Shown here: positions 8,724-53,242 of the stretch, piece by piece | How positions within the stretch are numbered: position 1 is the first letter of the stretch | Layout of the letters: each line of letters starts with the position of its first letter | Source: an uncultured Verrucomicrobiota bacterium | GTDB taxonomy: Bacteria > Verrucomicrobiota > Kiritimatiellia > RZYC01 > CAZAYP01 | Direction: 5' to 3' | DNA length: 64,000 nucleotides | NCBI GenBank assembly: GCA_964489425.1 | Contig: CAZAYP010000001.1 | Span: 80,171-144,170, forward strand | Translations under genes and position numbers: made by a program | The notes under the pieces: model-generated | Database searches by the model: none | What the model saw: the letters and a program-made list of their open reading frames with translations, nothing else | What the model was told of the DNA's origin: nothing

Positions 8724-8787
8724 GGCCGACCGCCAGGCCAGCCAGCGGCCCCGCGGGCACGGGGCCGGCATTGCAAGGAGACCGCAC

Positions 8788-19291: not shown

Positions 19292-19301
19292 GGGGCGCCG
19301 C

Positions 19302-37485: not shown

Positions 37486-37548
37486 CTTCGTGGACTTCGT
37501 GCTCTTCGTGGTGAAATTAATCTTGTCAGTCTCCAACATTACACCACG
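37486..37548. repeat. Second copy of the GxxExxY-associated repeat (direct repeat of 37030-37089)
   Basis: CTTCGTGGACTTCGTGCTCTTCGTGGTG...CAACATTACACCACG. The last 15 nt are identical to 37075-37089. Confidence 0.85.
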
Positions 37549-37554
37549 CCGGGG

Positions 37555-38808
37555 TTACAGGCCGCCGAGCAGGCTGGACACGTAGCCGGGCAGCTCGCTG
37601 CTCTTGGGGTACTCGTCGTACACCGCCTGGCGCAGCTTCCACATGCCGCTGACTTTTTCCCAGATGTGCGGCTGGCGGTACTTATCCACCACCTGCCAGA
37701 ACTGCTCCTCGCTCATGTTCAGGTAGGCCAGGCTGTCCTTGTAGTAATTCTTGGGGAACTCGCCGTCATACCGTTTCACCAGGACCGCCGCCTCCTCGCG
37801 CGTGATGTGCCCATCGCGCACCTCGTGGGCGGCGTCGGACGTGGCCCGCCCGATGCCGAACTTCACGAACCCCAGGTAGTAATGCAGCCCGTCCAGCTTG
37901 TCGTCCAGGCTGGCATACTTCGAGTACGTGCCCTCGGACCGGCCCTCGGGATTGGCCTGCAGCCCGGTATGTTCGGCGGCCAGGTAATAGTTCTCCTGCG
38001 GCACCCATTTTTTGTAGTAAGAAAACCAGTGGAACTCGATGCCCTTGCCGCGCAGGTCGGCGATGTCCGGCGGCGAGTAGAAGGTCAGGTCACACTCGTC
38101 GTAATCGCTGCGGGTCAACACGTCGGTCTCGTTAAGCCCGTACTCGATCAGCTCATGCACCGTAATGCCCTTGCAATACTGCTCGGCCCACATCTCAAAC
38201 GGCATGCCCCGCAGGTTGAACACGCGCGGATCGCCGGTGTACTCCGCCTCGCCGTTCTCGCCGAAGAACACGAGCTTGATGTCGAACTTCTGGGCAATGT
38301 GGAAAGCATAGCTCATCTGGCCGTAAATGAACGGCAGGAACACGTCGCCCACGGCCTCGAAGGCCAGGCGCGCCAGCTTGCGGTGCAGCCGGCCGTTCTG
38401 CCAGGCCATGAGGTTGTTGAACCCGCCCACATTGATGAAGTTGCAGAAGTTCTGGAACCCGATGGCCGTGTATTCGAACGGCACCCAGGTCACGGTCAGC
38501 GGATGCATGCCATACTTGTATTTCAGCTCATAGCTGACACGCGCGCTGTCCTTGCCTCCGCTGCCGGGCACCACCACATCAAAACGCCCATCGTTGCGCC
38601 GGTACTGGTCGCACAGCGCGCGCAACTCCTTTTCGCGCGTCTCCCAATCCACGCTGTTCTTGATGCCGGTGTAGCGGCACGCGCCACACACGCCCTCGGC
38701 ATCAAACTGGATGCGGGGCCGCTGGTTGGAGATCACGCAGCGTTTGCAGAACTTGATTTCCGCGGGCAAATGCGGGAGCTGACGATCAATGATTTTCTGG
38801 CTAACCAT
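37555..38808 (-). CDS. N-acetyl sugar amidotransferase (WbpG/PseA/PtmG-like PP-loop)
   Basis: FCKRCV...RPRI.FD..GVCGAC, VPGSGGKDS, GENGEAEY, SLDDK, KFGIGRATSDA. Confidence 0.9.
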   Translation of the reverse strand: MVSQKIIDRQLPHLPAEIKFCKRCVISNQRPRIQFDAEGVCGACRYTGIKNSVDWETREKELRALCDQYRRNDGRFDVVVPGSGGKDSARVSYELKYKYGMHPLTVTWVPFEYTAIGFQNFCNFINVGGFNNLMAWQNGRLHRKLARLAFEAVGDVFLPFIYGQMSYAFHIAQKFDIKLVFFGENGEAEYTGDPRVFNLRGMPFEMWAEQYCKGITVHELIEYGLNETDVLTRSDYDECDLTFYSPPDIADLRGKGIEFHWFSYYKKWVPQENYYLAAEHTGLQANPEGRSEGTYSKYASLDDKLDGLHYYLGFVKFGIGRATSDAAHEVRDGHITREEAAVLVKRYDGEFPKNYYKDSLAYLNMSEEQFWQVVDKYRQPHIWEKVSGMWKLRQAVYDEYPKSSELPGYVSSLLGGL

Positions 38809-38820: not shown

Positions 38821-39690
38821 TTAGGGTAAACTGGGGCCGGCCTGGCGACAGGGGATGCCCCGCGAACGACAGTATTCCTTGATGCCTTCCAGGGTTGTGT
38901 CCTGGAAGCCGGAAACCGATGATGGCTGCTTGAGGAAGGTGAGGTTGCCCTCGGTCGAGTAGTCTTCCTCCAGCACCGGGAGTTGGCGCAGGACATTGTA
39001 ATGCAACAGCGCGGCGAGGCTCACGGCGGAAGCCAGTCCTTCGGTGATGGCCGCGGCCACATGGTCTGGCCGGCCTGCCCCGCCGGCGGCAATGACCGGC
39101 ACGGGAACCGCCGCGGCGATCCGGTGCGTCAGGCCCACGTCGAACCCCCGGCCCGTGCCTTCCTGGTGGATGGCCGTCACCATGACTTCGCCCGCCCCCA
39201 GTTCCACGCCCTGCTGCGCCCATGCGAGCACTTCCTGCCCGGTGCGCTGCCGGCCATTGTTGGTATAGGCTTCATAGCGGCCCGTGGCGTTCGGCATGGC
39301 CTCGATGGACAGCACGATGGTCGATGACCCGAACCGGCGCGCCGCGCGCCGGATAAACTCCGGGTCAGCCAGGGCCGCTGTGTTGATCGCCACCTTGTCC
39401 GCCCCGGCCTTCAACACCCGGCTGATATCGTCCAGGGTGCGCAATCCACCACCCACCGTCAGGGGGATAAAAATCTGCCGCGAGGTCTGGCGAATGATTT
39501 CGTCAAGGCTGTTGCGATTGTACAGGCTGGCCACGGCATCCATGTAAACCAGCTCATCCGCGCCGTGCTCGTAATAGTACTGGGCAAAGCGGTAGGGCTT
39601 GCCCAAAACCCGCAGGCCTTCCAGGTGGATGCCCTTGACCAGGTTGGGCCCCTTGATGTCCAGGCGCGGTATGACACGCGGGCCGATCAC
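38821..39690 (-). CDS. HisF-like cyclase subunit (glycan-modification paralog)
   Basis: RVIPRLDIKG..LVKG, GADEL, PLTVGGGLR, GADKVAINT, GAGE. Adjacent to the amidotransferase. Confidence 0.88.
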   Translation of the reverse strand: MIGPRVIPRLDIKGPNLVKGIHLEGLRVLGKPYRFAQYYYEHGADELVYMDAVASLYNRNSLDEIIRQTSRQIFIPLTVGGGLRTLDDISRVLKAGADKVAINTAALADPEFIRRAARRFGSSTIVLSIEAMPNATGRYEAYTNNGRQRTGQEVLAWAQQGVELGAGEVMVTAIHQEGTGRGFDVGLTHRIAAAVPVPVIAAGGAGRPDHVAAAITEGLASAVSLAALLHYNVLRQLPVLEEDYSTEGNLTFLKQPSSVSGFQDTTLEGIKEYCRSRGIPCRQAGPSLP

Positions 39691-40736
39691 GCGACGGGGC
39701 CCGCCGCCATCTCCACCAGCGCCCGCCCCACCCGCCCTTGTTCGAGATCATCCAGCGCCTGGTTGATTTGCTCGAGCCGGTAGCGGTGGGTCAGCAGCTT
39801 CTCCAGGGGCACCCGCTTCTCGCTGATCATCTCGTAAAACCGCGGCACGTCGCGATCCGGCTGCACAGCGCCGCCCCAGCTGCCGGCGATCCGCTTGCCG
39901 CAGATTAAATCAAAAGGATCCAGCTTGATCCGGTCCCCGAACCGCGGGTGGCTGGCAAACACACACAGCCCGCCACCCTTGTGCACGGATTGGAACGCCT
40001 GCTCAATGGTTTCCACCCGGCCAGCCGCCTCGACGGAAAAATCCACCCCCTGGCCGCCGGTCATATCCCGAATCGCCGCCAGCGCGTCCTGCCGGCGGGC
40101 ATCGATGACCGCGGTGGCGCCGAGCTCCGACGCGAGCTGCAGTTTGCCCGGATCAATGTCGACGGCGATAATCTTGGAGGCATTGCACACGATCGCTCCG
40201 ATGAGCGCGCTCATGCCCACGCCGCCCAAGCCCCAGATCGCGATCGTATGACCGGCGGACGGCTTGACCTCGTTGATCACCATGCCCGCGCCGGTGGGGA
40301 TGGCGCATCCGAACAATACCGCCAGCTCCATGGGCAGGCCGTCCGGCTTCTTCACGCACCGGTTTTCCGCCACCACGCTGTAATCGCTGAACGTCGTCAC
40401 GGCGCCGGAGTTGATGACCGTGCTGCCTTTGCGGTACTGGGCGCCGGGCGCATTCAGACCCGTGCCGCGGATCCAGCCGAGGATGACGGCGTCACCCGGC
40501 TGCACCTTGGTCACGCCGGGCCCGACGGCCTCCACCGTTCCCGAGCCTTCATGCCCGAGCAGGTGCGGCAGGTAGGGATCCGGCCCGCGCCGGCCACGCG
40601 CCTCCATCAACTGGCTGTGGCAGACCCCGCTGTAAGCCAGCTTCACCAGCACCTGGCCGGTCTGCAGGGCCGGGATTTCCAGGCCATTCACAATTTCCAG
40701 CGGCTTGCCAAGCTCTGTGAGTACCGCGGCTTTCAT
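39687..40736 (-). CDS. Zinc-binding alcohol dehydrogenase (MDR family)
   Basis: GVCHSQ, LGHEGSG, GCAIPTGAG, GLGGVG. Lacks the four-Cys structural-Zn lobe. Confidence 0.88.
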   Translation of the reverse strand: MKAAVLTELGKPLEIVNGLEIPALQTGQVLVKLAYSGVCHSQLMEARGRRGPDPYLPHLLGHEGSGTVEAVGPGVTKVQPGDAVILGWIRGTGLNAPGAQYRKGSTVINSGAVTTFSDYSVVAENRCVKKPDGLPMELAVLFGCAIPTGAGMVINEVKPSAGHTIAIWGLGGVGMSALIGAIVCNASKIIAVDIDPGKLQLASELGATAVIDARRQDALAAIRDMTGGQGVDFSVEAAGRVETIEQAFQSVHKGGGLCVFASHPRFGDRIKLDPFDLICGKRIAGSWGGAVQPDRDVPRFYEMISEKRVPLEKLLTHRYRLEQINQALDDLEQGRVGRALVEMAAGPVA

Positions 40737-40752
40737 AGGTTTACCCACTTTC

Positions 40753-41811
40753 TTAAAACGGCCCTTTGAACCACGCGCCGGGCACGTCGTGCGGACATGG
40801 TTTGGCGCCGGGTTGTTCAGACCACTGCAGGTCCCGGCCCAGCATGCGGCCAATGGCCGCGGTGATGGCCGCCGGGCCAGGATAAAAGTCGCGGGTCAGC
40901 GCGGGGCTGGTGGGCACAGGAAAATCCGGCAGCGCGATGCGCGCCGGCGCAGCCTTCAGGTCCTTGAAGCACTCCATGCTGGCGCGGGCCACGATCTCGC
41001 CGGCCACGCTGCCGAAGGCGCAGCCGGTATCCAGGGCCACAAGGCGGCCGGTCTGGCGGACAGACCCCAGCACCAGGTCCCAGTCCAGGGGGCGCAGGGT
41101 GCGCAGGTCGATGACATCGCACGTGACGCCCTGCGGTGCCAGCGCCTCGGCCACGCGCAAGGCTTCCACGCTCATGTAGGAGTAGCCCACGATCGTGACG
41201 TCGCGGCCCGCGGCCAGGCGATGGGCCTGCCCCAGCGGCACCCGGTAGTCACCCTCGGGCACATCGCTTTCCGAGTTGTGGATCCAGCGGTGCTCCAAAA
41301 AAATGACGGGGTTGTCGTCGAAGATGCTGGCCAGCAGCAGCCCCTTGGCGTCCGCAGCCGAGGTCGGCATGACCACCTTCAGGCCCGGGATATGCGTGAA
41401 CAGAGCCTGCAGGTTCTGCGAGTGGGTCGGCCCCTGGCCCCAGCCCCGGCCGAGGATCATGCGGATGGTGATCGGGCACGGCAGGAGGCCGCCAAACATG
41501 TAGTGCCACTTGGCCGCATTGTTGATGAGCTGGTCCAGGCTCAGCAACGCGAAGTCGAGGCGCTGGTGGACCATCACTGGCCGCAACCCCTGCAACGCCG
41601 CGCCGATGGCCACGCCGGTCATGGCGTTCTCCGAGGTCGGCATGTCGAACACGCGCTCCGCGCCGAACTTCTCGGCCAGGCCGGCGGTGGTGCCGAAGAT
41701 GCACTTGGGATCCGTCACGCCCAGGCCGAAACAGAGAACCCCGGAATCCTGTTCCATGGCCACGGCCAGCGCATCGCGGACAGCCTGCACAAAGGTCATG
41801 CGGCGGGTCAT
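40753..41811 (-). CDS. TPP-dependent dehydrogenase E1 beta subunit / transketolase C-terminal-like
   Basis: DMPTSEN..G.AIGAAL.GLRPV, GPTHSQ, PGLKVV.P, NPVIFLEHR, VIDLRTLRPLD. Confidence 0.9.
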   Translation of the reverse strand: MTRRMTFVQAVRDALAVAMEQDSGVLCFGLGVTDPKCIFGTTAGLAEKFGAERVFDMPTSENAMTGVAIGAALQGLRPVMVHQRLDFALLSLDQLINNAAKWHYMFGGLLPCPITIRMILGRGWGQGPTHSQNLQALFTHIPGLKVVMPTSAADAKGLLLASIFDDNPVIFLEHRWIHNSESDVPEGDYRVPLGQAHRLAAGRDVTIVGYSYMSVEALRVAEALAPQGVTCDVIDLRTLRPLDWDLVLGSVRQTGRLVALDTGCAFGSVAGEIVARASMECFKDLKAAPARIALPDFPVPTSPALTRDFYPGPAAITAAIGRMLGRDLQWSEQPGAKPCPHDVPGAWFKGPF

Positions 41812-42803
41812 GGCGTCACCGCTTCCCGGTAAAGATTCGTGTACGCCTCGGCCGGGTCCGGCCACGGCGACTGCTCGGCAAATGCGAAGGCCGCATCCAC
41901 CTCGGAGGTAATCTGCGCCTGGACCGCAGCCACCTCGGCCGCAGACACCAGGCCCGCGGCAATCAGGTCATCCTGCAGCAGCAAGACCGGGTCCCGCTCC
42001 TTCCAGTGATCGAACTCCGCCAGGGGGCGGTACTCCAGGTCGTTGTCGTAGTTCGGGCCACAATGTTCGCGCCAGCGATACGTGGAGAACTCCAGAAAAT
42101 ACGGGCCGGCGCCGCCGCGGACTTGGGCGGCGGCGGCGGCGATCATCTCATAGACCTGCAGGGCGTGGTTGCCGTCGCCGCTGCCCGCGGGGCAGCCCAG
42201 GCCGCGCACCATCTCGTGGATGGCGCGGCCCGCCGGCTGGCGCACATCGATCCGCGAATACACGGAATACAGGTTGTTCTCGCACAGGAACAGCACGGGC
42301 AGCTTCTTGAGCACGGCAAAGTTGACCGACTCGTAAAACACACCCTCCTCCACGGCCGCGTCTCCCAGGAAGATGCAGCTCAGGCGGCCGGTCTTGCGGT
42401 ATTTCAACGCCAGGCCCAGGCCCACGCCCACGGGGATGGTCCCGCCGACAATGGCCGTGCTGGCCACGAATCCCACCGCCAGGTCCGCCAGGTGCATGGA
42501 TCCGCCGCGGCCGGCGGCGCAGCCCGTGGCCTTGCCGTAGAGTTCCGCCAGCATGCGGCCGAGGTTGCCGCCCTTGCCGAGATAGTGGCCATGCGAGCGG
42601 TGGGTGCTGACGGCGAGGTCCCCGCGGTCCAGCACCATGCCCGCGGCAGCCGCCACGGCTTCCTGGCCGGAGCACAGGTGCGTGGGGCACCGCATCTTTT
42701 GCTGGGCATAGCGCTCGGCAATGGCTTCCTCGGCCATGCGGATACGCAGCATGCGCCGCCACAGCTCAACCGCCGCGGTGCGGGGAATGGGTATAGCGCT
42801 CAT
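41808..42803 (-). CDS. TPP-dependent dehydrogenase E1 alpha subunit
   Basis: HLCSGQEA, STHRSHGH, GRGGSMH, GDAA...ENN TPP motif, TYRWREHCG. Confidence 0.9.
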   Translation of the reverse strand: MSAIPIPRTAAVELWRRMLRIRMAEEAIAERYAQQKMRCPTHLCSGQEAVAAAAGMVLDRGDLAVSTHRSHGHYLGKGGNLGRMLAELYGKATGCAAGRGGSMHLADLAVGFVASTAIVGGTIPVGVGLGLALKYRKTGRLSCIFLGDAAVEEGVFYESVNFAVLKKLPVLFLCENNLYSVYSRIDVRQPAGRAIHEMVRGLGCPAGSGDGNHALQVYEMIAAAAAQVRGGAGPYFLEFSTYRWREHCGPNYDNDLEYRPLAEFDHWKERDPVLLLQDDLIAAGLVSAAEVAAVQAQITSEVDAAFAFAEQSPWPDPAEAYTNLYREAVTP

Positions 42804-42821
42804 CTTCTCAACTCCGGGCTG

Positions 42822-43481
42822 TCAGGGCATGAACCAGTAGTAATCCCCGGTGAATCCCACTTCCTTGAAAAAGGCTTTCCACTCGTCCACGTGCATCACC
42901 GTCAGCGCGGTGAGGTTCCATGCCGCCATGGCCTTTTTCTCCTCCTCGTTGCGAAAGGCATCCACGGTGATGAAGCTGCCCTTGCGCGCCACGCGTTCGA
43001 TTTCGCGCAGCACGGTAGCGCAATCCTGACGGTTGAAGTTGTGCACGGTCGTGATGGAGATCACCACGTCGAACGACTTGTCCGGGAACGGCAGGCGGCG
43101 GGCGTCCGCCACCTGGACGCAGGGCTTCATATCGTCCATGGCGTTGGCAATGGCGTACTCGGAGATATCGATGCCGCGCACGGTGATGCCGGGGATCAGC
43201 GCCGCCATGTCGTGCAGCATGAATCCTTTGCCGCAGCCCACGTCCAGCACGGAACTGGCCGCAGTCAACCCGAAGTGCTGCTGGAACGTGGGGATGACCG
43301 GCTGCCAGAAACGCGCGTTGTAGTAGTAGCCGCCGTAGCCGGTGCGGCGATCGCCATCAAAAAAATCTTTCCCGAACTGGCGGGCGATCCGCCGATCCTC
43401 CTCGGTCTTCTCCGCGGCGCGCTTGGTCACATCGCGCTTGGTCTTGGGGTAATTCACCAGCAAATCAATTTCTTGGCCCAT
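42822..43481 (-). CDS. Class I SAM-dependent methyltransferase
   Basis: VLDVGCGKG, GIDIS, LPFPDKSFDVV. Confidence 0.88.
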   Translation of the reverse strand: MGQEIDLLVNYPKTKRDVTKRAAEKTEEDRRIARQFGKDFFDGDRRTGYGGYYYNARFWQPVIPTFQQHFGLTAASSVLDVGCGKGFMLHDMAALIPGITVRGIDISEYAIANAMDDMKPCVQVADARRLPFPDKSFDVVISITTVHNFNRQDCATVLREIERVARKGSFITVDAFRNEEEKKAMAAWNLTALTVMHVDEWKAFFKEVGFTGDYYWFMP

Positions 43482-43507
43482 GGTGGTTTCCTTTCGTTGT
43501 TGTCAGT

Positions 43508-44461
43508 CTATTTCGCGCCGCCCGCCGCCCCGAGCTTCTTCATGGTTTTGATGTTGTAGTAAATGTCGTCGTTCTTGAGCTGGCCGGCACGGAACGCGGC
43601 GATCACGTCACGGATCCCGTCCTCCACGCCATGGGCGGGCGCGAACCCAGTCGCCAGCAGTTTCTTAGAAGACAGGCGATAGGAGCGCGGGTCGTTGGAC
43701 GCGCTCACGGAAATCTCGGCGGGCACATGGCGGATGACCATCTGCGCGATGTCCAGAATGGAGATATTCTCAAAACCGGCGTTGTAGATGCCCGGCGCCC
43801 GCGCCCCCAGCGCAAGGAAGTGCTGGTACACCCGGACCATGTCGGCGATGTGGATGTTGGGCCGGGTCTGGTCGCCGCCAAACACGGTGATGCGGCCGTT
43901 GGCCAGGGCTTGCATGGTGAGCATGTTCACCGACAGGTCCAACCGCATGCGCGGCGAGTAGCCGCAGATGGTCGCCGGCCGGATGCATTGGATGAGGATT
44001 TGATCCTGGTAACTGAGCAGCACGCGCTCGCTGATCATCTTGGTCTTGTTGTAATCGGAGATCGGCACCAGGTCCAAATCCTCGGTGACCTCGGGTTCGT
44101 CTTTCACCCCGTACACGCTGCCGGAGCTGGCATAGATGAACTGGCGCACCTTGTGGCGGATGGCGCGCTCGACCAGCCGCATCGCCCCCAGGGCATTGAC
44201 TTCCCAAGAAAGCTTGGCGTCGAGCTCGGCGCAGGGATCATTGGCCACGTTGGCCAGGTGTATGATGGCGTCCACCCCGGCCATGGGCAAAGCCTCCACG
44301 TTGCGGATGTCTTCACGGACCACGGTCAGCGCCGGGTGCGCGGCCAGGTAGTTGCCAAACCACATGGCGTCCACCACGGTGACCTTGTGCCCTGCCTCCA
44401 GCAGGGCCGGCGTCAGCCGGCTGCCCACGTAACCGCAACCCCCGGTAACCAGAATGTGCAT
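43508..44461 (-). CDS. NAD-dependent epimerase/dehydratase (extended SDR)
   Basis: VTGGCGYVG, HLA, ASSGSVYG, YNKTK, G.SPRMRLDL. Confidence 0.9.
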   Translation of the reverse strand: MHILVTGGCGYVGSRLTPALLEAGHKVTVVDAMWFGNYLAAHPALTVVREDIRNVEALPMAGVDAIIHLANVANDPCAELDAKLSWEVNALGAMRLVERAIRHKVRQFIYASSGSVYGVKDEPEVTEDLDLVPISDYNKTKMISERVLLSYQDQILIQCIRPATICGYSPRMRLDLSVNMLTMQALANGRITVFGGDQTRPNIHIADMVRVYQHFLALGARAPGIYNAGFENISILDIAQMVIRHVPAEISVSASNDPRSYRLSSKKLLATGFAPAHGVEDGIRDVIAAFRAGQLKNDDIYYNIKTMKKLGAAGGAK

Positions 44462-44473
44462 GGCGCGTCCTTG

Positions 44474-45580
44474 TTAGGCTTGTTGTTTGAAAAAGTCCAA
44501 AACGTTTTCGATCACATACCCGACGGCATCGTCCTCCAGCTCCGGATAGACCGGCAGGCTCAGGATCGTGGCGGCCAACTGCTCCGCCATGGGGAAGTCG
44601 CCGCGCCGGTAACCGAGGCCGGCAGCCGCGGGCTGCAGGTGCAGAGGGATGGGATAATTCACCTTGGTTTCCACGCCACGCGCGGCCAGGAACGCCTGCA
44701 ACTCGTCGCGCCGCGGGGTTTGGACCATGTAACGGTGGTAGACCGGCTCCTCGTAGTCGCGGTCTTCGGGCACGGTGACCACCCCGCGCAACGCCCGGGA
44801 ATACTGGCCGGCGATGGCGCGCATGCGATCGTTCCAGCCGTCCAGGTACGGCAGCTTGATGTTGGCGATCCCGGCCTGGATGGAGTCCAGGCGCGAGTTG
44901 ATGCCCCAGAACTCGCACACGTCGCGGTTGGCCAGCCCATGGTTGCGGTATTTCATGAGTTGGGTTGCCAGGGCGGCATCGCGGGTGGTGATCACGCCGC
45001 CATCGCCGTGCACGTGGAGGTTCTTGAGCGGGTGCAGGCTGAAGCCGGCGGCCGTGCCGAACGAACCCGCGCGCCGGCCGTTACGCCGCGCGCCCACAGC
45101 CTGGGCCGCGTCCTCGATCACCAGCAGGTGGTGCTTGGCGGCCAGCGCCAGGATCGCGTCCATGTCCGCCACGCGGCCGGTCAGGTGCACGGGCAGGATG
45201 GCCTTGGTGCGCGGGGTGATGGCGGCCGCGACCGCGGCCGGGTTGATGTTCATGTCCGGCCCCACGTCGGCGAACACGATCCGCGCGCCGGTGCGGTCAA
45301 TGACCCAGGCCGAGGCGATGAACGAGTTGGGCGCGGTGATCACCTCGTCGCCCGGGCCGATGCCCAGGGCGGCCAGGGGCAGGTAGAGCGCGTCCGACCC
45401 GTTGGCCACAGCAATGGCATGCGGCACTCCGCAGTACGCGGCAAACTGCGCCTCAAAACGCTCCACCTCGGCGCCCAGGATGTAGGCCCCGGCGCACGAG
45501 AGTTCCTCGAACTTGGCCAGGATGGCCGGCCGCAGGCTCTCGAACTGGCGGCCCAAATCAACAAATTTAACCGCGCGCAT
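44474..45580 (-). CDS. DegT/DnrJ/EryC1/StrS aminotransferase
   Basis: NGSDAL, GPGDEVIT, PVHLTG, IEDAAQA, SLHPLKNL...GDGG, NSRLDSIQA. Confidence 0.92.
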   Translation of the reverse strand: MRAVKFVDLGRQFESLRPAILAKFEELSCAGAYILGAEVERFEAQFAAYCGVPHAIAVANGSDALYLPLAALGIGPGDEVITAPNSFIASAWVIDRTGARIVFADVGPDMNINPAAVAAAITPRTKAILPVHLTGRVADMDAILALAAKHHLLVIEDAAQAVGARRNGRRAGSFGTAAGFSLHPLKNLHVHGDGGVITTRDAALATQLMKYRNHGLANRDVCEFWGINSRLDSIQAGIANIKLPYLDGWNDRMRAIAGQYSRALRGVVTVPEDRDYEEPVYHRYMVQTPRRDELQAFLAARGVETKVNYPIPLHLQPAAAGLGYRRGDFPMAEQLAATILSLPVYPELEDDAVGYVIENVLDFFKQQA

Positions 45581-46721
45581 AGAATTCCCGCACCTTGGCA
45601 AGCATGTAGTCGATCTCGTCATCCGTGATATACTCGTGCACCGGCAGGGAGATCACGGAATCGCACACCGCCTCCGCCACGGGAAAGTCGCCGCGCCGGT
45701 AGCCATACGGCCTGGCCGCGGGCTGCAGGTGCATGGGAATGGGGTAATGCACCTTGGCGTCAATCCCCTGCCCCACCAGGTACTGCTGCAACGCGTCCCG
45801 CCGCTCGGCGCGCACCACGTAGATGTGGTAGACCTGCTGCACGTCAGCCGGACGCGCCGGGACCGTGACCTGCGGGATAGCGCGCAGCCCTTGGTCCAGG
45901 CGCGCGGCGTGCGCCATGCGCGCGGTAGTGATGGCGTCGATTTTTTTCAGCAGGTGGTTGGCGACGATCGCCTGGATCGAATCCAGCCGCGAGTTGTAGG
46001 CAAACACCACGCACTCATCGCGATTCACCAGGCCGTGGTTGCGGGACAGCACCAACTGGTCGTGAAGCTCCGGTGAATCGGTGACGATGTAGCCGCCGTC
46101 GCCCCACACGTTGAGGTTCTTGAGCGGATGCATGCTGAAGCACCCGGCCAGGCCGAAGGTACCGGCCGGCTTGCCCTGGTAATAGGCGCGGATCCCGTGG
46201 CAGGAATCCTCCACCACCTTCAGGCCCCGGCGATTGGCGATCTCCATGATCCGGTCCATCTGGCACGGCAGGCCCGACCAGTGCACGGGCAGGATGGCCT
46301 TGGTCCGCGGGGTGATGGCCGCCTCGATCAGGTCCGGGTTGATGTTGTAATCCGCGCGGATATCCACGAACACCGGCCGCGCGCCCGCGGTGACGATTGC
46401 GCCAATGGTGGCAAAAAATGTATACGGCGTGGTGATGACCTCGTCGCCCGGGCCCACGCCGGCCCCCTTGAGGCTCAGGAGCAGCGCGTCTGTGCCGCTG
46501 CCCACGCCGACGACAAACCGGCTGCCGGTGAGCTTGCGGATGTTCTCCTCGAACTCGTCCACGCTGCGGCCGAGGGTGTAGTCCGCGCGCTGGACGAGCT
46601 GCTCGATCTGCTTGAAGATTTCCGGGTAATCCGCGAACTGCTGGACGAGGTAGTTGTGGTTGATCTGCGGACGGCCGGTGGCCTCGTACTGGCCGGGCAG
46701 GTAGTTGTGCATCACTGGCAT
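45567..46721 (-). CDS. DegT/DnrJ/EryC1/StrS aminotransferase (second paralog)
   Basis: SGTDAL, GPGDEVIT, VEDSCH, SMHPLKNL..WGDGG, NSRLDSIQA. Confidence 0.92.
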   Translation of the reverse strand: MPVMHNYLPGQYEATGRPQINHNYLVQQFADYPEIFKQIEQLVQRADYTLGRSVDEFEENIRKLTGSRFVVGVGSGTDALLLSLKGAGVGPGDEVITTPYTFFATIGAIVTAGARPVFVDIRADYNINPDLIEAAITPRTKAILPVHWSGLPCQMDRIMEIANRRGLKVVEDSCHGIRAYYQGKPAGTFGLAGCFSMHPLKNLNVWGDGGYIVTDSPELHDQLVLSRNHGLVNRDECVVFAYNSRLDSIQAIVANHLLKKIDAITTARMAHAARLDQGLRAIPQVTVPARPADVQQVYHIYVVRAERRDALQQYLVGQGIDAKVHYPIPMHLQPAARPYGYRRGDFPVAEAVCDSVISLPVHEYITDDEIDYMLAKVREFYARG

Positions 46722-46738
46722 GGGGCGGGCTCCGTGGG

Positions 46739-47758
46739 TTAAACCTTGTGAACGTAGTCCAGGGGCTGGGTTTGCAGAAACTCCCAGTTTTCATCAATCC
46801 AGGCGCGGGTCTCGGCGAGGCCGGCGGCGAACGGCACGCGTGTCTGCCAATCCAGCTCGCGCCGCGCCTTGGACGCATCGAGGCTGAACACCGCGTCCTG
46901 GCCAAAATTTTCCGCGGTGACGCGCAGGGCCGCGGCCGGGTCGGCGCCGCACTGGCGGCAGATCATCTCCACGACCTCGCGGATGCTGAACACCTCGCCC
47001 TGGGGCGCCACGTGGTAGACCTCGCCGTTGCGGCCGGCCACGATCGCGCGGTGCACAGCCGCGGCCACATCGCGGATATGGACGAACGCGCGCCGCGACA
47101 ATCCGCCGCCGTGCAACTCGATCGGCCGCCCCAGCTTCAGGTAGATGAACGCGCGCGGAATGATGCGGTACAATTGCTGGTGGATGCCATAGACATTGGC
47201 CGACCGCGTAAACACCACGGGAAACCCGTAGCGCTTGAACAGCGTGAACAGGTGCAGGTCGCCGGCCAGCTTGGACGCGGCGTAGGGCGTGCTGGGATAG
47301 TAGGTGTGGCTTTCGACAATGTTTTCGCCGGTGCTGCCGTACACCTCGGGCGTGGAGATCGCCACGTAGCGACGCAGGTACTTCTTCTCCTTCAGCCCCT
47401 CGGCCAGGCGGACCACGCCCAGGCAATTGGTCTGGTACCACTGCTCCGGCCATTTCCAGCTGTTGCGCACCTCGCCCTGCGCCGCGAGATTGACCACCAC
47501 GTCGGGCTCAAACTCATCGCACAGCGCCACAAGCCGGTCCATCTCCGCGTTCACGTCCAACTGGCGGAAGGCGAAGCGCTCCGGCCGGCGCGGCTGGCGG
47601 TACAGGTAAGGCAAAAAACAGGCGGGATACTCGGCCGACCGGCTCACGCCCAGCACCTGGGCCGCGGTGTGCTGCAGCAGGTGCTGCACGATGTGCGCGC
47701 CGGTGAACGAGTTGCTCGCCACCACCAGCGCCCGGCGGATGTCCAGCTCCGGGGTCAT
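46739..47758 (-). CDS. NDP-sugar dehydratase/epimerase (extended SDR, RmlB/GMD-like)
   Basis: ASNSFTG variant of the nucleotide-binding motif. NLAAQ, ISTPEVYG, PSTPYAASK, ANVYG. Confidence 0.85.
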   Translation of the reverse strand: MTPELDIRRALVVASNSFTGAHIVQHLLQHTAAQVLGVSRSAEYPACFLPYLYRQPRRPERFAFRQLDVNAEMDRLVALCDEFEPDVVVNLAAQGEVRNSWKWPEQWYQTNCLGVVRLAEGLKEKKYLRRYVAISTPEVYGSTGENIVESHTYYPSTPYAASKLAGDLHLFTLFKRYGFPVVFTRSANVYGIHQQLYRIIPRAFIYLKLGRPIELHGGGLSRRAFVHIRDVAAAVHRAIVAGRNGEVYHVAPQGEVFSIREVVEMICRQCGADPAAALRVTAENFGQDAVFSLDASKARRELDWQTRVPFAAGLAETRAWIDENWEFLQTQPLDYVHKV

Positions 47759-49296
47759 CCAAAATTCAACATGGCCTCGCAGCTCTTGAGCAGCCGCGCC
47801 TTCTTGATGCACTCTGAGTTACCCACGATCCGCACGGCCTGGGCCCCCGCCAGCTGCCCAAGGAACGTGGCCACGTTGATGGGCAGGCCGCTGGCCGCGG
47901 CCAGGGACGCCACGGACGTGAACGCATCGCCGGCGCCAATCGTGTCCACCACCTGGACCTCCAGCGGCGGACACTTGCTCACCGCATCCTGGCACAGGCC
48001 GATGGTTTCGATGTTGCCGCGCGTCAACCAGCAGTAGCGCGCCTTGAAAAACTGCTGCAGCTGGCGCAGTTCGCCTTCGAATTCAAGCTGCCGGCGGCCG
48101 GACGCCAGGCAGATTTCATTTTCGTCCAAAGAAAACGAATCGGTGCGCGTGTAGCGGCGGTTGATCAGGTTAAACCCGAAATTGTTGCTGTTGGTCTGGC
48201 AGTTCAAGGCCATGAACCGGGCGCGCTCCTGCACCATCTGGCGCACGGGCTCGGACATCAGACCATGGCCGAAGTCCATGACCATGACCACATCGAATTG
48301 ATCAATGCAGTCGGCCAGGCGCCGGCCCACTTGCGCCTGCACCGCGGGGCCCGGGACCTGGCCGTTCAGGTAGTTGACCGAAAACAGCTTCCACAGTTCC
48401 TTGCCCTCTTGCATGGGCTCCACAAACCGCTGCTTCACGATCGTGACAAACTCCGGGATCCGCAGGATCAGGTCCTCGTCCGGATGCACGTACTTGGCCA
48501 ACTCGCCTTCCACCCAGGGCTCAACGCCGACCAGGCTGAGGATCTTGACGTTGGGCGTGAACTCCTTGACGTGGCGGAACACGGCCAGCGCGCCGCCCGC
48601 CTGCCAGTCATCGTTGAGAAACCGCCCGGAAATCATGCGGTTCTTCGAGGTCAACCCCTGGACCTTGACCGTGGAATACCGATCAAAAATAATTTCGCCA
48701 ATCACCAGCACCTTCAGCTGGCTGAACCGGTCCACGCAGTCGCGCAACTGCGAGGCGGTGGTTTCCCGGGCCAGCTGGCGGCAGAACGTCTTGACCTCCG
48801 GCGGGTACACCTCGAAGTGCTCGTTCAGCAAGCGGGTGGAGCTGAACACCACGGACCCCACGTAGCACACCTTGCCACCCAGGCGCTCCACGGTCTGGAC
48901 ATCGTCCTGGATGTTGCCAGTGACGTCCACCGCGGGGTTCTCGTACTCGCGGCCTTTGCAGTACACGTCCGGCCGCACGCACTCGATCGCCTCGACCGCG
49001 GCCGGGTACGGGATCACGACCACGTAGTCCACGTAACCGATCGCCGCCAGGGCCTTGACCCGCAAGGCGTCGTTGAAGTACGGGCGGCCCGGGCCCTTGT
49101 TGACGTGCTTCTCGCCGGTGATGGTCACCACCAGCACATCGCCCAGCTTGTGCGCCTCCTCGAAGTGAATGACGTGGCCGGGATGGACCAGGTCGAAGGT
49201 CCCATGGCATTGAACGAGGGTCTTGCCTTCGGCGCGCAGCCGGCGGAACAGCTCCGGCGCGGCGGCAAACGGGATGATTTTGTCAGCCAGGTCCAT
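47755..49296 (-). CDS. Bifunctional cytidylyltransferase-like + PfkB kinase (HldE-like, reversed domain order)
   Basis: N-terminal HGTFDLVHPGH (HxGH), KGPGRP, KGREY. C-terminal VIGE.I.DRY, DFGHG, DTIGAGDAF. Confidence 0.88.
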   Translation of the reverse strand: MDLADKIIPFAAAPELFRRLRAEGKTLVQCHGTFDLVHPGHVIHFEEAHKLGDVLVVTITGEKHVNKGPGRPYFNDALRVKALAAIGYVDYVVVIPYPAAVEAIECVRPDVYCKGREYENPAVDVTGNIQDDVQTVERLGGKVCYVGSVVFSSTRLLNEHFEVYPPEVKTFCRQLARETTASQLRDCVDRFSQLKVLVIGEIIFDRYSTVKVQGLTSKNRMISGRFLNDDWQAGGALAVFRHVKEFTPNVKILSLVGVEPWVEGELAKYVHPDEDLILRIPEFVTIVKQRFVEPMQEGKELWKLFSVNYLNGQVPGPAVQAQVGRRLADCIDQFDVVMVMDFGHGLMSEPVRQMVQERARFMALNCQTNSNNFGFNLINRRYTRTDSFSLDENEICLASGRRQLEFEGELRQLQQFFKARYCWLTRGNIETIGLCQDAVSKCPPLEVQVVDTIGAGDAFTSVASLAAASGLPINVATFLGQLAGAQAVRIVGNSECIKKARLLKSCEAMLNFG

Positions 49297-49306
49297 GATG
49301 TCCCCC

Positions 49307-49903
49307 CTAGGACGGTTTGAGCTCGACCAGGTCCATCCACCGGTGAAGGATGGCCGCGTGGCAGGTTTCGGCGTGTCCGTAGCTCATGGCGGGCACGTAG
49401 AAGTTAAGCCGGCCGAGCCGGCGCAGCGGGTTGGCTTCGGCCATGGCGGACAGCGTGATCACGGCCAGGCCGTGACCGCGCGCCCAGCGCGCGGCATGCA
49501 GGATGTTGGGCGATTTTCCCGAGCTGCTGATCGCCACCAGCATGTCGCCGCGGCGGGCGCGGCGGCGCAGCGGCTCGGTGAACACCACTTCGTAACCCAG
49601 GTCGTTGGAAATGGCCGTGATCAGGGACAGGTCGGAGAACACCTCGGTGTGCACATGGGCGTTCTTGGCGAGGTCGGCGGCATAGTGGCTGGCCATGGAG
49701 GCGCTCGCGCCGTTACCGATCAGGTACAAGGTGCCGCGCCGCCGGCGCAGGGCCAGGGTCCATGCCTGCCAAAGCGCAAACCCCGCGTCCACGGCCAACG
49801 CGCGGCCACGGCCATCGCGCACCGACACGGCCGCCAGGACCGCGCCCAACCGGGCCAGCTCCAGCTGCCAGGACCCCGTGATTTCACGGCCGGCGCGCGT
49901 CAT
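49307..49903 (-). CDS. SIS-domain phosphosugar isomerase (GmhA-like)
   Basis: IGNGASASMASH, TAISNDLGY, AISSSGKSPNI, ETCH..ILH. Confidence 0.88.
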   Translation of the reverse strand: MTRAGREITGSWQLELARLGAVLAAVSVRDGRGRALAVDAGFALWQAWTLALRRRRGTLYLIGNGASASMASHYAADLAKNAHVHTEVFSDLSLITAISNDLGYEVVFTEPLRRRARRGDMLVAISSSGKSPNILHAARWARGHGLAVITLSAMAEANPLRRLGRLNFYVPAMSYGHAETCHAAILHRWMDLVELKPS

Positions 49904-50466
49904 GGCTGCAGGATCCCCTGGATGACTTTCTGCCACATCCATTGCAAACGCTCGCGGAACAGGTTGAAACGCTGGATCCGTCCGGCCACGAAAGCCCACT
50001 CTTCCCCGGCGGCCGCGCCGGCCGGCTGGCCCTGCAGCAGCGTGTCCAGGTCGCGCACCAGGGCGTCGGCGCTCTCGAGGCGCTGGGCAATGATGTCGCC
50101 CAGGGCGCGGCGCGCGCTCTGGCCCCACTCCTGGTTGGCCTCGTAGTAGTCCTTGCGGTCGCCCTTGACCCACACGCGGCGCAGCGCGCCCCACTGCTCG
50201 AGCTGGCGCACGGCCATGCTGGCGCTGCCCTTGCTGATGCCCAGGCGCCGGGTCAGATCATCCAGGGTCTGGGCCACGGGGCTGAGATACACATGGGCGA
50301 AGATCTGGCCCAGCACCCGCCCCACGCCCAGGGCCTGGGACGCGTTGCCGGCCAGGGTGATGAACCGCTCGCGGACTTCCTGCAGGGCCGGGGCAGACTT
50401 CGTCCCGGTCGCGTCCCGCGGCGGCTGGTCCGCCGGCCGGGAAGCGCGGGCTTTAGCAGCGGGCAT
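49900..50466 (-). CDS. GbsR/MarR family transcriptional regulator
   Basis: GQIFAHVYLS, TLDDL...LGISKGSASMAVRQL..WG.L, GDRKDYYEA. ATG 50466 preferred over TTG 50484. Confidence 0.85.
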   Translation of the reverse strand: MPAAKARASRPADQPPRDATGTKSAPALQEVRERFITLAGNASQALGVGRVLGQIFAHVYLSPVAQTLDDLTRRLGISKGSASMAVRQLEQWGALRRVWVKGDRKDYYEANQEWGQSARRALGDIIAQRLESADALVRDLDTLLQGQPAGAAAGEEWAFVAGRIQRFNLFRERLQWMWQKVIQGILQP

Positions 50467-50479
50467 CTTACGTCCAGCG

Positions 50480-50521
50480 TTCAATAGGTTTTGAATTTAT
50501 CATACGCCGCTTGGCGGACAA
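50480..50521 (-). promoter_or_regulatory. Candidate promoter overlapped by palindromic operator TTCAA-N6-TTGAA
   Basis: Minus strand TTGTCC-16 bp-TAAATT with TG extension. Palindrome TTCAATAGGTTTTGAA at 50480-50495. Confidence 0.55.
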
Positions 50522-50545: not shown

Positions 50546-52474
50546 TTACGGCGCTCCCGGCCGCGGCTCCAGAAGCTGGAGGTTGAGCTGCACGGCCTCA
50601 CGGCCGGGATCCAGAGCGGCGGCCCGCGCAAACACCGCGCGCGCGGCCGGGAGATCGCCCGTCAGCCGCAGGCGCAACCCCAGTTGCGTCAGCAGCAGCA
50701 CGTCGGTCGGCGCCAGGTCCACGGCGGCGCGCAGGGCCTGCAACGCGCCGGCGTCGTCGCCTTGCGCGGCGTAGGCGCGGCTCTGGCCAAGGTAGATCTC
50801 CGTGTCGAGGGGATTGCGCGCCAGGGCCTGCGCGTACCAGGCCAGGGCGTCGCCGGCCGCGGCGCTCCGGGCGGCCGGCCGCACCTGCCAGGCGGCGCGG
50901 GTCTTGTAGACATGCCCCAGTTGCAAGCAGGGCTGCCAGTTGCCCGGATCCAGGCGCCGCGCCCAGTGCAGGCTGGACAGCGCGCGCGCGTCCTGCTGCA
51001 TCATGCGGTGCACCTCGCCCACCTTGAGCAGCGCATCCGCCGCACCCACCCGCAACGCCATCCACGCCCAGAGCGCGGCCAGCGCCAGGCCGCTCCCGAA
51101 CACCACCGCCCACCCCGGCCGGGGCAGCGGGCGGGCGCGCAACAGGCCGTTTTCGTGCAGCGCCGCGAACGTAACGCCGGCCAGCAGGGCGAAGGCGTCC
51201 ATGTTCGCCAGCACGTGGAAGTTGAAGTCGAAGACCGCGTGCGCCAGGTTCGCCAGGCCGCCGCCCACCAGGCCGGCGATCAGCAACGGATCCCGTTCGC
51301 GGTCCGAGCGGTGGAACGCCAGCAGCAGGCGCACCAGCCAGTAGATGGCCAGCAGGGCGAAGATCGCCAACCCGGCCACGCCGTACTCCGCGAGGATCTG
51401 CAGGTACTCGTTGTGGGCGTAATTCACCCACAGCTGGAAGTCGGTGGACTTGTACTGGAAAAAGGTCCAGCGGTACGTGCCCGGGCCATGCCCGAGCAGC
51501 GGCCGCGCGGCGACGACCTTGAGCGTGTCCGGCCAGATGCGCTGGCGGATGTCGCCGGCGCGCGCCTGGTCCACGCGGGTCTTGACCATGGGCGAAGCCA
51601 CGTACAGCCCCACGGCCAGGGCCACGACCCCGAGCGGCAGCACCACCAGCGCGCACCAGAACAGGCGCCGGCTGCGCTTCCAGGCGATCATCCAGCAGGT
51701 CACGGTCACGCCCAGGGCCGTGCCGATCCAGCCGCTGCGGGATTGGGACAGGAAGATGTTGGGCAGGAACATGAGCAGCCCGTAGCCGGCCAGCAGCCGC
51801 AGCGGCCACCCGGCGGAGGGCATGAACAGCAGCGCCAGGGCCAGGCACACCAGCATCTCCAGCAGGTTGGCAAAATGGTTGGGGCACATGTACGTGCCGC
51901 TGGCCCGCAGGCCGTACTGCGCCGGACGGGGCAGGTTCAGCACCATGCGCGAGTGATGGAAGTGCTGGATCAAGGCATACCACGCCACCAGGGCGACCGC
52001 GAAGATCAGCACGGCGTACACGAACCGCCAGCGGCCATTGCGCGCGCCCAGGTCGGTCCAAATCCAGCAGGCTGCGGCCAGGCTGGTCAGCTTGAGCGCG
52101 TCCAGCCGGCTTTCCCAAGGCACCACCGACCACGACCCGGCCAGCCACGCGTAGCCGAGGCCGAGGGCGATCAGCGCGCTGCCCGGCGGCAGTTGGAGTC
52201 CGCGCAGGTCCGGGGCAATGAAGGGCCGGAGACAGAAAAGCAGCAGCGCCACGAACGTGCAGAACATCAGGCCGCCGGCGGACCACGGCCGCACGGCGCC
52301 GAACAGAACGAGCCCCGCCAGCAACGGACCGAGCAGCAAGCCCAGCACGGTGCGGTCATACACCAGCCGCCGCGTGGAAAACACCTCCTTGCGCCGCCGC
52401 CGGCGGGACGCGGGGAACTCCGGGGCCGGGATGATGGGCGGCGGTTCCGAGGCCGGGGCGCTGGTTTCAGGCAT
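50546..52474 (-). CDS. O-antigen ligase family protein with C-terminal TPRs
   Basis: GTYMCPNHFA, SQSRSGW, R..IW...G.GPGTY, AHNEYLQ..AEYG, FDFNFH, helical repeats. Confidence 0.85.
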   Translation of the reverse strand: MPETSAPASEPPPIIPAPEFPASRRRRRKEVFSTRRLVYDRTVLGLLLGPLLAGLVLFGAVRPWSAGGLMFCTFVALLLFCLRPFIAPDLRGLQLPPGSALIALGLGYAWLAGSWSVVPWESRLDALKLTSLAAACWIWTDLGARNGRWRFVYAVLIFAVALVAWYALIQHFHHSRMVLNLPRPAQYGLRASGTYMCPNHFANLLEMLVCLALALLFMPSAGWPLRLLAGYGLLMFLPNIFLSQSRSGWIGTALGVTVTCWMIAWKRSRRLFWCALVVLPLGVVALAVGLYVASPMVKTRVDQARAGDIRQRIWPDTLKVVAARPLLGHGPGTYRWTFFQYKSTDFQLWVNYAHNEYLQILAEYGVAGLAIFALLAIYWLVRLLLAFHRSDRERDPLLIAGLVGGGLANLAHAVFDFNFHVLANMDAFALLAGVTFAALHENGLLRARPLPRPGWAVVFGSGLALAALWAWMALRVGAADALLKVGEVHRMMQQDARALSSLHWARRLDPGNWQPCLQLGHVYKTRAAWQVRPAARSAAAGDALAWYAQALARNPLDTEIYLGQSRAYAAQGDDAGALQALRAAVDLAPTDVLLLTQLGLRLRLTGDLPAARAVFARAAALDPGREAVQLNLQLLEPRPGAP

Positions 52475-52555
52475 GGCAGTCCCCACGGGCCGGAGCGCGC
52501 CGCGCCGGACGGAAGACGGGAGCAAGCCTCATGCCGTGCGCCCTGCGATCATGGG

Positions 52556-53221: not shown

Positions 53222-53242
53222 GCCTTGCGCCTCTAGTCAGAA

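Follow-up and report, generated by a model that had tools for sequence, protein, structure and literature searches.

Whether an E1 pair of the pyruvate dehydrogenase (PDH) type that is encoded among nucleotide-sugar genes serves a dehydrogenase complex or takes part in building a sugar is the question raised by a stretch of 64,000 nucleotides from an uncultured Verrucomicrobiota bacterium (GenBank assembly GCA_964489425.1, contig CAZAYP010000001.1, positions 80,171 to 144,170 of the forward strand; hereafter the window; ~65% G+C), whose genome of 5.9 Mb is 97.4% complete. A first-pass annotation had proposed that ten contiguous genes at 39687–49903 form an undescribed pathway for a higher-carbon or branched diamino nucleotide sugar, with the E1 pair acting as a carboligase. 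Profile searches (Pfam and NCBIfam) of 75 long open reading frames (ORFs) across the window confirmed the gene content and order given there, i.e., on the minus strand, a SIS-domain isomerase, a nucleotidyltransferase-PfkB kinase fusion, a dehydratase of the short-chain dehydrogenase/reductase (SDR) superfamily, two DegT-family aminotransferases, an extended SDR, a methyltransferase, E1 alpha, E1 beta and a zinc-dependent alcohol dehydrogenase (Zn-ADH). The reading that we favour, with a confidence only slightly above even, is that this cassette makes a nucleoside diphosphate (NDP)-activated, heptose-derived amino sugar with a two-carbon branch, for which the E1 pair would add a pyruvate-derived acetyl unit to an NDP-keto-heptose, with two aminations and a methylation, and that the sugar is destined for a polysaccharide assembled by Wzx/Wzy and exported by Wza-Wzc.

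The E1 pair compared with dehydrogenase complexes

The two subunits are encoded side by side (all features lie on the minus strand unless stated otherwise), E1 alpha at 41808–42803 (E1_dh, 196.9 bits; PDH 'y' type lineage) and E1 beta at 40753–41865 (Transket_pyr + Transketolase_C), as a split, thiamine diphosphate (ThDP)-dependent enzyme; a GDA...ENN stretch in E1 alpha is presumably the ThDP motif. At first sight, the pair could be the E1 of a conventional dehydrogenase complex for pyruvate, branched-chain substrates or acetoin, with its E2 and E3 partners in another part of the genome and its place in a glycan operon due to chance: PDH E1 alpha and PDH E1 beta give the best family matches, the best solved relative of E1 alpha is the human PDH E1 alpha (171 bits), and a lipoyl domain is present in the genome. 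Homologues in the O-antigen region of Coxiella burnetii (CBU_0692/0693) have likewise been read as pyruvate dehydrogenases that serve fatty-acid metabolism (excerpts of PMC5423948); by their locus numbers, they lie inside the cbu0676-cbu0700 lipopolysaccharide (LPS) region.

However, both subunits score below the family cut-offs, E1 alpha with 282.8 bits for TIGR03182 (cut-off 393.85) and E1 beta with 288.4 bits for PRK09212 (NF006667; cut-off 321) and 288.5 bits for NF008854 (cut-off 454), and the pair is tied to the sugar genes by overlapping start and stop codons as well as by a synteny that is kept across phyla. In accordance with the absence of E2, E3 and GmhB stated in the first-pass annotation, no E2, E3, GmhB, HisH or N-acetyltransferase domain was found by Pfam in the 75 long ORFs of the window. 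The E2 catalytic domain (PF00198) had no match in the whole 97.4% complete genome, while the same search was positive in 10 of 14 control genomes. A lipoyl domain was seen only as part of a distant E1 (29% identity): a single gene (G000:C16:51917-55816, minus strand) combines E1 alpha, E1 beta (Transket_pyr + Transketolase_C) and the lipoyl domain in an open frame of 1132 aa that continues beyond the stretch examined, and may represent a self-contained E1-lipoyl system. The other E1-like match of the genome is similarly distant (33% identity). It is a short split pair (G000:C63:26769-30218; 203 aa with the first part of E1_dh, and 200 aa with Transket_pyr) next to a B12-binding radical S-adenosylmethionine (SAM) enzyme and a family 2 glycosyltransferase (GT2), apparently a further thiamine module, of a different kind, in another glycan locus.

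The most distinctive trait of the pair is the C-terminus of E1 beta. In dehydrogenase complexes, E1 beta has a free C-terminus about 325 residues in, which docks E2. The protein of the window counts 370 residues by ORF, or ~352 from its likely start (most likely the ATG at 41811, which would overlap the stop of E1 alpha), and the PDH E1 beta profiles stop at residue 342; the 28-residue C-terminal extension beyond the profile end terminates in PHDVPGAWFKGPF. A scan of one genome per species yielded 497 relatives of this E1 beta, of which the best 80 (57–67% identity) were analysed as related loci. The tail follows the consensus PHDVPGxWFxGPF, with a conservation of 80% or more across 81 sequences, and in 79 of the 80 related E1 betas the alignment reaches the last residue of both proteins. 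It is missing from all eight E1 betas of the E2-linked type that were compared (38–40% identity, from another order), for which E2 linkage was shown in the three tested; in each of these three, an E2 with lipoyl, E3-binding and catalytic domains directly follows E1 beta. A quick maximum-likelihood tree placed the window protein and its 80 relatives in one clade (Shimodaira-Hasegawa-like approximate likelihood-ratio test, SH-aLRT, 98), separate from the E2-linked group (100). Its topology departs from the phylogeny of the organisms, and the window protein groups with loci that carry two DegT genes.

Both types of E1 beta can be seen together in the order of a Coxiellaceae metagenome-assembled genome (MAG), where the matches from a search of 86 genomes fall into tiers: 61–62% identity in two genomes, 41–48% in about 30 genomes, and a third tier at 37–40%, in addition to one partial match of 56%. 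All eight inspected loci of the middle tier adjoin sugar genes, and all eight inspected loci of the third tier are without sugar-gene neighbours, with E2 after E1 beta in three of three tested. The sugar-linked loci of this order include a second E1 beta clade (eight loci, L107-L114, 44–46% identical), which is accompanied by DegT in two of the eight loci and by an NTP_transferase in six, four of the latter having SIS as well. One of these loci (L108) also contains a WbpB-like oxidoreductase, a sugar dehydrogenase and a reversed nucleotidyltransferase-kinase, and the C-terminus of its E1 beta ends in GPF too. The DegT protein of one middle-tier locus was compared with the protein of PDB 3uwc and is not the same.

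Other features weigh against the reading of the pair as a carboligase. Besides the genomic lipoyl domain fused to the other E1, the active-site histidines EHC (alpha) and THSQ (beta) are apparently kept, and we take these to be the lipoyl-transfer residues of E1. Judged by its residues, nothing in the E1 pair apart from the tail rules out a lipoyl acceptor, and the histidines do not discriminate between the readings. Nonetheless, the sub-cut-off scores, the lack of a genomic E2 and the clade-specific tail of E1 beta bear out the earlier view of the pair; that it is the E1 of an ordinary dehydrogenase for 2-oxoacids or acetoin is very unlikely.

Recurrence of the cassette in other phyla

The 80 related loci come from Pseudomonadota, Thermodesulfobacteriota, Planctomycetota, Fidelibacterota, Omnitrophota, Spirochaetota, Chloroflexota, Bdellovibrionota, Cyanobacteriota, Patescibacteria, Actinomycetota and others (more than 12 phyla in total), as well as from one archaeal (Methanomicrobia) MAG. 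Gene content was determined by tblastn with the window proteins in the 52 loci that have at least 8 kb upstream and at least 3 kb downstream of E1 beta (full loci). E1 alpha was present in all 52, the 4,6-dehydratase in 44, the methyltransferase in 42, the nucleotidyltransferase-kinase in 41, Zn-ADH in 39, the SDR in 37 and SIS in 30, and the first and second DegT genes were found in 9 and 10 full loci, respectively. Gene orders vary among the loci across phyla; of the 59 loci with the methyltransferase, 53 have it immediately upstream of E1 alpha/beta. One carrier of a related E1 pair, Paludibacterium purpuratum CECT 8976, has neither the methyltransferase nor the core SDR in its locus. Clustering of the ORFs of the 80 loci additionally revealed frequent extra SDRs, extra methyltransferases and radical SAM enzymes. 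The claim that the cassette is conserved as a unit is thus borne out for a core of dehydratase, SDR, methyltransferase, E1 alpha and E1 beta, which recurs in the 80 related loci and is usually joined by SIS, the nucleotidyltransferase-kinase and Zn-ADH; since the same gene set recurs in other genomes, the cassette is more than a chance assembly.

The form with two DegT genes, as in the window, was found in 12 of the 80 loci, and its carriers include Roseibium marinum DSM 17023, Viridibacterium curvum JCM 18715, two Legionellaceae genomes and a Coxiellaceae MAG. ThDP enzymes of other families are distributed differently: an acetolactate synthase (ALS)/YerE-like enzyme is encoded in none of the 12 two-DegT loci vs. 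36 of the 68 others, and a split transketolase in none of the 12 vs. 10–11 of the 68. Neither an ALS-like ThDP enzyme (TPP_enzyme_N/M/C) nor a transketolase was detected by Pfam in the window ORFs. As other ThDP enzymes are absent from both the two-DegT loci and the window, E1 alpha/beta is the only ThDP-dependent former of C-C bonds there. Among the related loci, up to three kinds of ThDP enzyme (E1 pair, ALS/YerE-like and split transketolase) occur in one sugar locus.

If the pair is a carboligase, it could act at two stages, both of which had been put forward in the first-pass annotation. The earlier stage would precede activation: in the manner of DXS or transketolase, the E1 pair would join a two-carbon unit of pyruvate to a sugar phosphate and deliver a longer ketose phosphate to SIS, the kinase and the nucleotidyltransferase. 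The fold of E1 beta is common to DXS and transketolase, to both of which it has weak NCBIfam matches, SIS and the kinase are too divergent for a substrate to be assigned, and split transketolases do occur in 10–11 of the 80 related loci. Known chemistry argues otherwise, as a 1-deoxy-ketose derived from pyruvate should not be convertible by an aldose-ketose isomerase, and so does linkage, as the E1 pair is tied most tightly to the methyltransferase, the SDR and the dehydratase and persists in loci without SIS or the kinase. Extension before activation, for which no specific support was found, consequently appears quite improbable, whereas the other option, branching of an NDP-keto sugar, fits the linkage better because the tightest partners of the pair act on NDP-sugars.

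No description of the cassette was found in the literature searched, although the cluster list of Krug et al. 2024, which is said to comprise ~120 gene clusters with such E1-type enzymes, may already include glycan loci. The pathway is real and conserved, and apparently uncharacterised, with what would be a known kind of chemistry.

Acceptor sugar and proposed route

What could be observed is which genes are present, how they are conserved and that the E1 pair is not of the PDH kind; the acceptor sugar, the product, the positions, the order of the steps and each enzymatic step were inferred, and so were the heptose nature, the two amino groups and the 8–9 carbons put forward in the first-pass annotation. 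That the sugar is probably a heptose is suggested by the first two genes. The SIS protein (49307–49903; SIS_2, 47.5 bits) is a divergent relative of GmhA (TIGR00441, 72.8 bits; cut-off 209.45) and is proposed to be a sedoheptulose-7-phosphate isomerase. The fusion protein (47755–49296; N-terminal CTP_transf_like + C-terminal PfkB) carries rfaE domain II at residues 17–155 and domain I at residues 189–496, i.e., the domains of HldE in reverse order (HldE match 108.7 bits; cut-off 521), and a search against solved structures returned generic relatives only. Elsewhere, the genome encodes a protein that matches GmhA better (187 bits), HldE in split form and two GmhB-like proteins (122.7 and 114.8 bits; cut-off 149.6). 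Given these other genes, the copies in the cassette are extra and divergent and look dedicated, and the absence of GmhB from the window is no obstacle, since the two GmhB-like genes can supply the phosphatase in trans.

Formation of a keto group could be assigned to two proteins, the RmlB-like NDP-sugar 4,6-dehydratase (46739–47812; GDP_Man_Dehyd, Epimerase; TIGR01181, 185.6 bits, cut-off 365) and the extended SDR (43508–44461; Epimerase, 124.9 bits). The latter is 55–73% identical in 48 of the 80 loci, and its best solved relative is 6vo6 (128 bits), which we take to be Cj1427, the GDP-heptose C4-dehydrogenase; it is a candidate NDP-heptose dehydrogenase that would make the keto group, or else a ketoreductase. 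The two DegT-family pyridoxal phosphate-dependent proteins (first, 45567–46721, DegT 349.9 bits; second, 44474–45622, DegT 354.9 bits) are both closest to 3uwc among solved structures (378 and 321 bits). For the first this is followed by 7b0d, a glutamine--scyllo-inositol transaminase (278 bits), and then by QdtB, 2oga and WbpE, and for the second by 2oga (311 bits), 7b0d (311 bits) and QdtB (303 bits); QdtB, WbpE and 2oga (as DesV) are presumably C3 aminotransferases. What we take to be the motif of the catalytic lysine is kept in both (FSMHPLKNL and FSLHPLKNL), hence they are aminotransferases and not ColD-type dehydratases.

The class I SAM-dependent methyltransferase (42822–43481; Methyltransf_11, 76.5 bits) is the most conserved partner of the E1 pair (60–77% identical in 59 of the 80 loci), with weak solved relatives of which none is sugar-specific. 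The Zn-dependent medium-chain alcohol dehydrogenase (39687–40853; ADH_N + ADH_zinc_N) is a candidate reductase of the acetyl branch. These generic relationships leave room for a different role that involves no branching of a sugar. Together with the ADH and the methyltransferase, the E1 pair could provide a small substituent that is not a sugar, or the donor of one, such as a unit of the acetoin or hydroxyethyl type or an acyl group destined for the amino groups; alternatively, it could decarboxylate a sugar 2-keto acid. An unusual N-substituent would be conceivable, given that the window encodes two aminotransferases but no N-acyltransferase. On the other hand, no acyl carrier, CoA ligase, E2 or transferase lies beside the E1 pair in the window, the core occurs in 68 loci without the DegT pair, hence the function of E1 is independent of amino groups, and no NeuB- or Kdo-type synthase that would supply a sugar keto acid is encoded in the window. 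We regard such a role as distinctly unlikely.

For the favoured branched amino heptose, the following route can be envisaged. The SIS enzyme would isomerise sedoheptulose-7-phosphate, the kinase domain of the fusion protein would phosphorylate C1, a GmhB-like phosphatase encoded elsewhere would take off the 7-phosphate, and the nucleotidyltransferase domain, or the CBS-domain NTP_transferase of the locus, would form the NDP-heptose. Keto groups would then be introduced by the RmlB-like dehydratase and the Cj1427-like SDR. E1 alpha/beta alone, as a ThDP carboligase, would decarboxylate pyruvate and transfer the acetyl unit onto a ketone of the sugar; the result would be a tertiary alcohol that bears an acetyl branch and counts nine carbons. 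Amination by the two DegT enzymes, at a ring ketone and possibly at the branch ketone, or else reduction by Zn-ADH would follow, and the methyltransferase would add a methyl group.

Amidination, which the first-pass annotation had counted among the steps, does not belong to the conserved pathway. The genes behind it, for a WbuX-family N-acetyl sugar amidotransferase (37555–38808; TIGR03573, 323.3 bits, above the cut-off of 203.2) and a HisF/WbuZ-like subunit (38821–39690; TIGR03572, 243 bits, below the cut-off of 299.7), the latter co-transcribed with the cassette here, accompany the core in one of the 80 related loci, and that one has no DegT pair; in the window, the WbuX/WbuY/WbuZ trio is incomplete, with no HisH-like gene.

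Several observations weigh against the heptose route, in addition to the lipoyl domain and the histidines described above. SIS and the nucleotidyltransferase-kinase are far below the GmhA and HldE cut-offs and are absent from 22/52 and 11/52 full loci, respectively, the best solved relatives of the dehydratase are dTDP-glucose 4,6-dehydratases (6bi4, 140 bits), the link between the SDR and Cj1427 depends on the identity presumed for 6vo6, and the solved relatives of Zn-ADH are generic class P/III ADHs, its position varying between loci (directly behind E1 beta in 13). Some of these observations would be expected if the same branching took place on a 6-deoxy-hexose (e.g., dTDP- or GDP-4-keto-6-deoxyhexose), with SIS and the kinase serving a separate heptose residue of the glycan and with an eight-carbon branched amino sugar of the yersiniose/paulomycose type as the product. 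A hexose acceptor would likewise agree with the RmlA/HddC-like NTP_transferase found in 20 of the 80 related loci, and with a second sugar pathway of the window (7929–10559, plus strand; NTP_transferase, a TylC3-type sugar C-methyltransferase at 8788–10026 and an RmlC-like epimerase) that has no 4,6-dehydratase of its own. It is, however, at odds with the presence of SIS or the nucleotidyltransferase-kinase next to the core in most loci, in many phyla and in changing gene orders, with the dedicated look of the divergent cassette copies beside a housekeeping GmhA, split HldE and GmhB elsewhere, and with the kinship of the core SDR to 6vo6, presumably a GDP-heptose dehydrogenase. In excerpts of two accounts of E1-pair sugars, the products are branched deoxyhexoses (C-4 branched octoses), and no heptose acceptor appears (PMC12247030, PMC4753412). 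We consider a hexose acceptor unlikely.

The same excerpts provide the closest precedent for the branching step. The first-pass annotation had cited YerE and transketolases, but had not named the PDH-E1-like pairs of antibiotic pathways, termed 'alpha-KADH2', i.e., AviB1/AviB2 (avilamycin), Pau11/Pau12 (paulomycin), the aldgamycin pair and KbDH-alpha/beta (kibdelomycin), in which the acetyl group of pyruvate is proposed to be added at C3 or C4 of keto sugars (PMC12247030; PMC4753412). Processing of the branch ketone follows, by reduction, methylation, oxidation or transamination (PMC12247030), and for KbDH cross-coupling with simple ketones and sugar analogues was tested in vitro. As in those pathways, the window has a split E1 alpha and E1 beta without E2/E3 amid genes for an NDP-sugar dehydratase, a reductase, an aminotransferase and a methyltransferase, and its tailoring genes (ADH, methyltransferase, DegT) match the pattern of branch processing described in the excerpts. 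In contrast to the antibiotic pairs, that of the window belongs to a surface-polysaccharide locus with Wzx/Wzy and Wza-Wzc, in a genome of the Gram-negative type; it has relatives in very many phyla, and the activation genes to which it is linked are those for heptose-type and not for dTDP-hexose sugars. That the resemblance to AviB1/B2, Pau11/12, AlmDI/DII and KbDH is one of description and gene context has also to be set against the favoured reading, as has the survey of Actinomycetota: among 401 sampled genomes (two of them, flagged as unpublished, count in the tally only), the tail clade was found only in the genome already known to carry the cassette, and there was no actinomycete bridge to the antibiotic enzymes in that sample. 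The other E1 beta matches in these 401 genomes are at most 47% identical and have no tail, except for a few that are extended only by reading through stop codons. No antibiotic-type E1 enzyme was among the solved structures matching E1 alpha.

In the literature excerpts, a division is drawn between YerE-type enzymes, which lead to LPS sugars, and E1 pairs, which lead to secondary metabolites (PMC12247030; PMC4753412). YerE/YerF (yersiniose A), ErwE and MyGE are described as single-chain, ALS-related ThDP enzymes that branch CDP-4-keto-3,6-dideoxyhexose in LPS sugars; the chemistry proposed here is the same, with the acyl anion of a 2-keto acid placed on a sugar ketone and the branch then reduced, and so is the surface-glycan setting (PMC9306805). 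The enzyme family differs (TPP_enzyme_N/M/C), and the window encodes no member of it. For the heptose part, the nearest counterpart is the GDP-heptose pathway of the Campylobacter jejuni capsule, with GmhA, HddA, GmhB and HddC, the C4-dehydrogenase Cj1427, 4,6-dehydratases, epimerases and reductases (PMC10680097), where a heptose is activated from sedoheptulose-7-phosphate and the NDP-heptose is then oxidised at C4 or dehydrated by a 4,6-dehydratase, as proposed here. Unlike the window cassette, the excerpted account of C. jejuni features no ThDP enzyme, amination or carbon branch (PMC10680097). Furthermore, the kinase of the window is a PfkB domain behind a cytidylyltransferase-like domain and not a separate HddA, and the matches of the cassette to heptose families are all below cut-off. 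The reversed nucleotidyltransferase-kinase architecture has a parallel, by published description, in CBU0678 of C. burnetii, a reversed-domain HldE required for full-length (phase I) LPS, near the phosphoheptose isomerase CBU0674 and the SDRs CBU0676/0677 (PMC5843353); its exact role has been called unclear (PMC13252051). The nearest nucleotidyltransferase-kinase of a Coxiellaceae MAG is 34% identical to that of the window, and we treat the link to C. burnetii as a lead rather than a result.

A broader proposition can be put forward tentatively: the widespread, stand-alone E1 alpha/beta clade with the tail PHDVPGxWFxGPF, unlinked from E2, may possibly constitute a nucleotide-sugar carboligase, and its two-DegT variant would then produce a diamino heptose that carries a C-acetyl or C-(1-aminoethyl) branch, with nine carbons in all, without NeuB-type condensation. 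Bradyrhizose, caryophyllose and the sugar of R. palustris CGA009 were considered as products of the two-DegT variant and rejected, as they have no amino groups and the branching enzyme of R. palustris is assumed in the literature to be YerE-like.

Surroundings of the cassette and implications

The cassette is part of an unbroken run of minus-strand genes from 50484 down to 37114, with spacings of 10–26 nt or overlaps according to the ORF coordinates. At its head, the gene for a winged-helix regulator (49900–50484) adjoins the SIS gene, its stop overlapping the SIS start as ATGA. The adjacent regulator of the first-pass annotation can thus be retained in terms of position, but its likeness to MarR is weak (MarR_2, 28.9 bits, cut-off 27; CudC, 52 bits, cut-off 218). 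At the other end, the run extends past 39687 through the WbuZ-like gene, whose start overlaps the ADH stop by 4 nt, the WbuX gene and a gene for a GxxExxY / PD-(D/E)XK_3 protein (37114–37539; Pfam/NCBIfam), which lies between WbuX and the CBS-domain NTP_transferase and has no obvious role in sugar synthesis. From the onsets of the profile matches, the true starts of the ADH and of the dehydratase are probably near 40739 and 47737, respectively.

Upstream of the run lie a Wzy_C-TPR protein, a Wza-like exporter and a Wzc-like tyrosine kinase (50546–55366; Wzy_C, 84.9 bits; Poly_export with SLBB; Wzz, GNVR, AAA_31), along with a beta-barrel porin. Downstream are the CBS-domain NTP_transferase (35893–36972; NTP_transferase, 145.9 bits, + CBS; HddC, 100.5 bits, and mannose-1-phosphate guanylyltransferase, 161 bits, both below cut-off), a possible sugar-1-phosphate (heptose or hexosamine) nucleotidyltransferase of the locus, an FkbM methyltransferase, a Wzx-type flippase (33438–34913; Polysacc_synt, 60.7 bits), several glycosyltransferases and a second Wzy. 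LptF/G is encoded in the window, which indicates a Gram-negative-type genome. The downstream part also holds a B12 radical SAM enzyme and, among the glycosyltransferases, a TylC3-type C-methyltransferase (28159–29442). Together with the one at 8788–10026, the latter suggests that the locus may make C-methyl-branched sugars as well.

Further features of the window stand apart from the cassette. The glycosyltransferase block has at its far end a gene for a B12-binding radical SAM enzyme followed by one for an FkbM methyltransferase (17849–20075), and a Mur-ligase-like gene (6510–7862, plus strand; Mur_ligase, Mur_ligase_M, Mur_ligase_C) is found in the unusual company of NTP_transferase and C-methyltransferase genes. 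Long ORFs of 714, 411, 511 and 255 aa without a Pfam match lie in or beside the glycan locus (4256–6400 on the plus strand, 223–1905, and 56815–57582 on the minus strand), and three unannotated gaps of > 254 nt remain in the window, the ORFs inside them having no Pfam match. The DNA of 40000–49900 was found, partly or wholly, in freshwater and lake metagenome runs of three studies, one of which may be the source of the assembly.

If the favoured reading is true, sugar branching by E1-type enzymes would extend from Gram-positive antibiotic producers to the surface glycans of very many bacteria, and it would take place on a heptose scaffold, here in combination with two aminations, predicting monosaccharides unreported in structural studies. 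Under the broader proposition put forward above, the product would stand for a new class of bacterial surface monosaccharide that is made without NeuB-type condensation, and E1 genes of O-antigen regions of other bacteria that are annotated as pyruvate dehydrogenase would be sugar-branching enzymes. A likely annotation error, the naming of E1 genes in glycan loci as pyruvate dehydrogenase, would be corrected. The C-terminal tail of E1 beta provides a sequence marker for the clade, and with R. marinum DSM 17023 and V. curvum JCM 18715 there are cultured carriers in which the sugar could be found.

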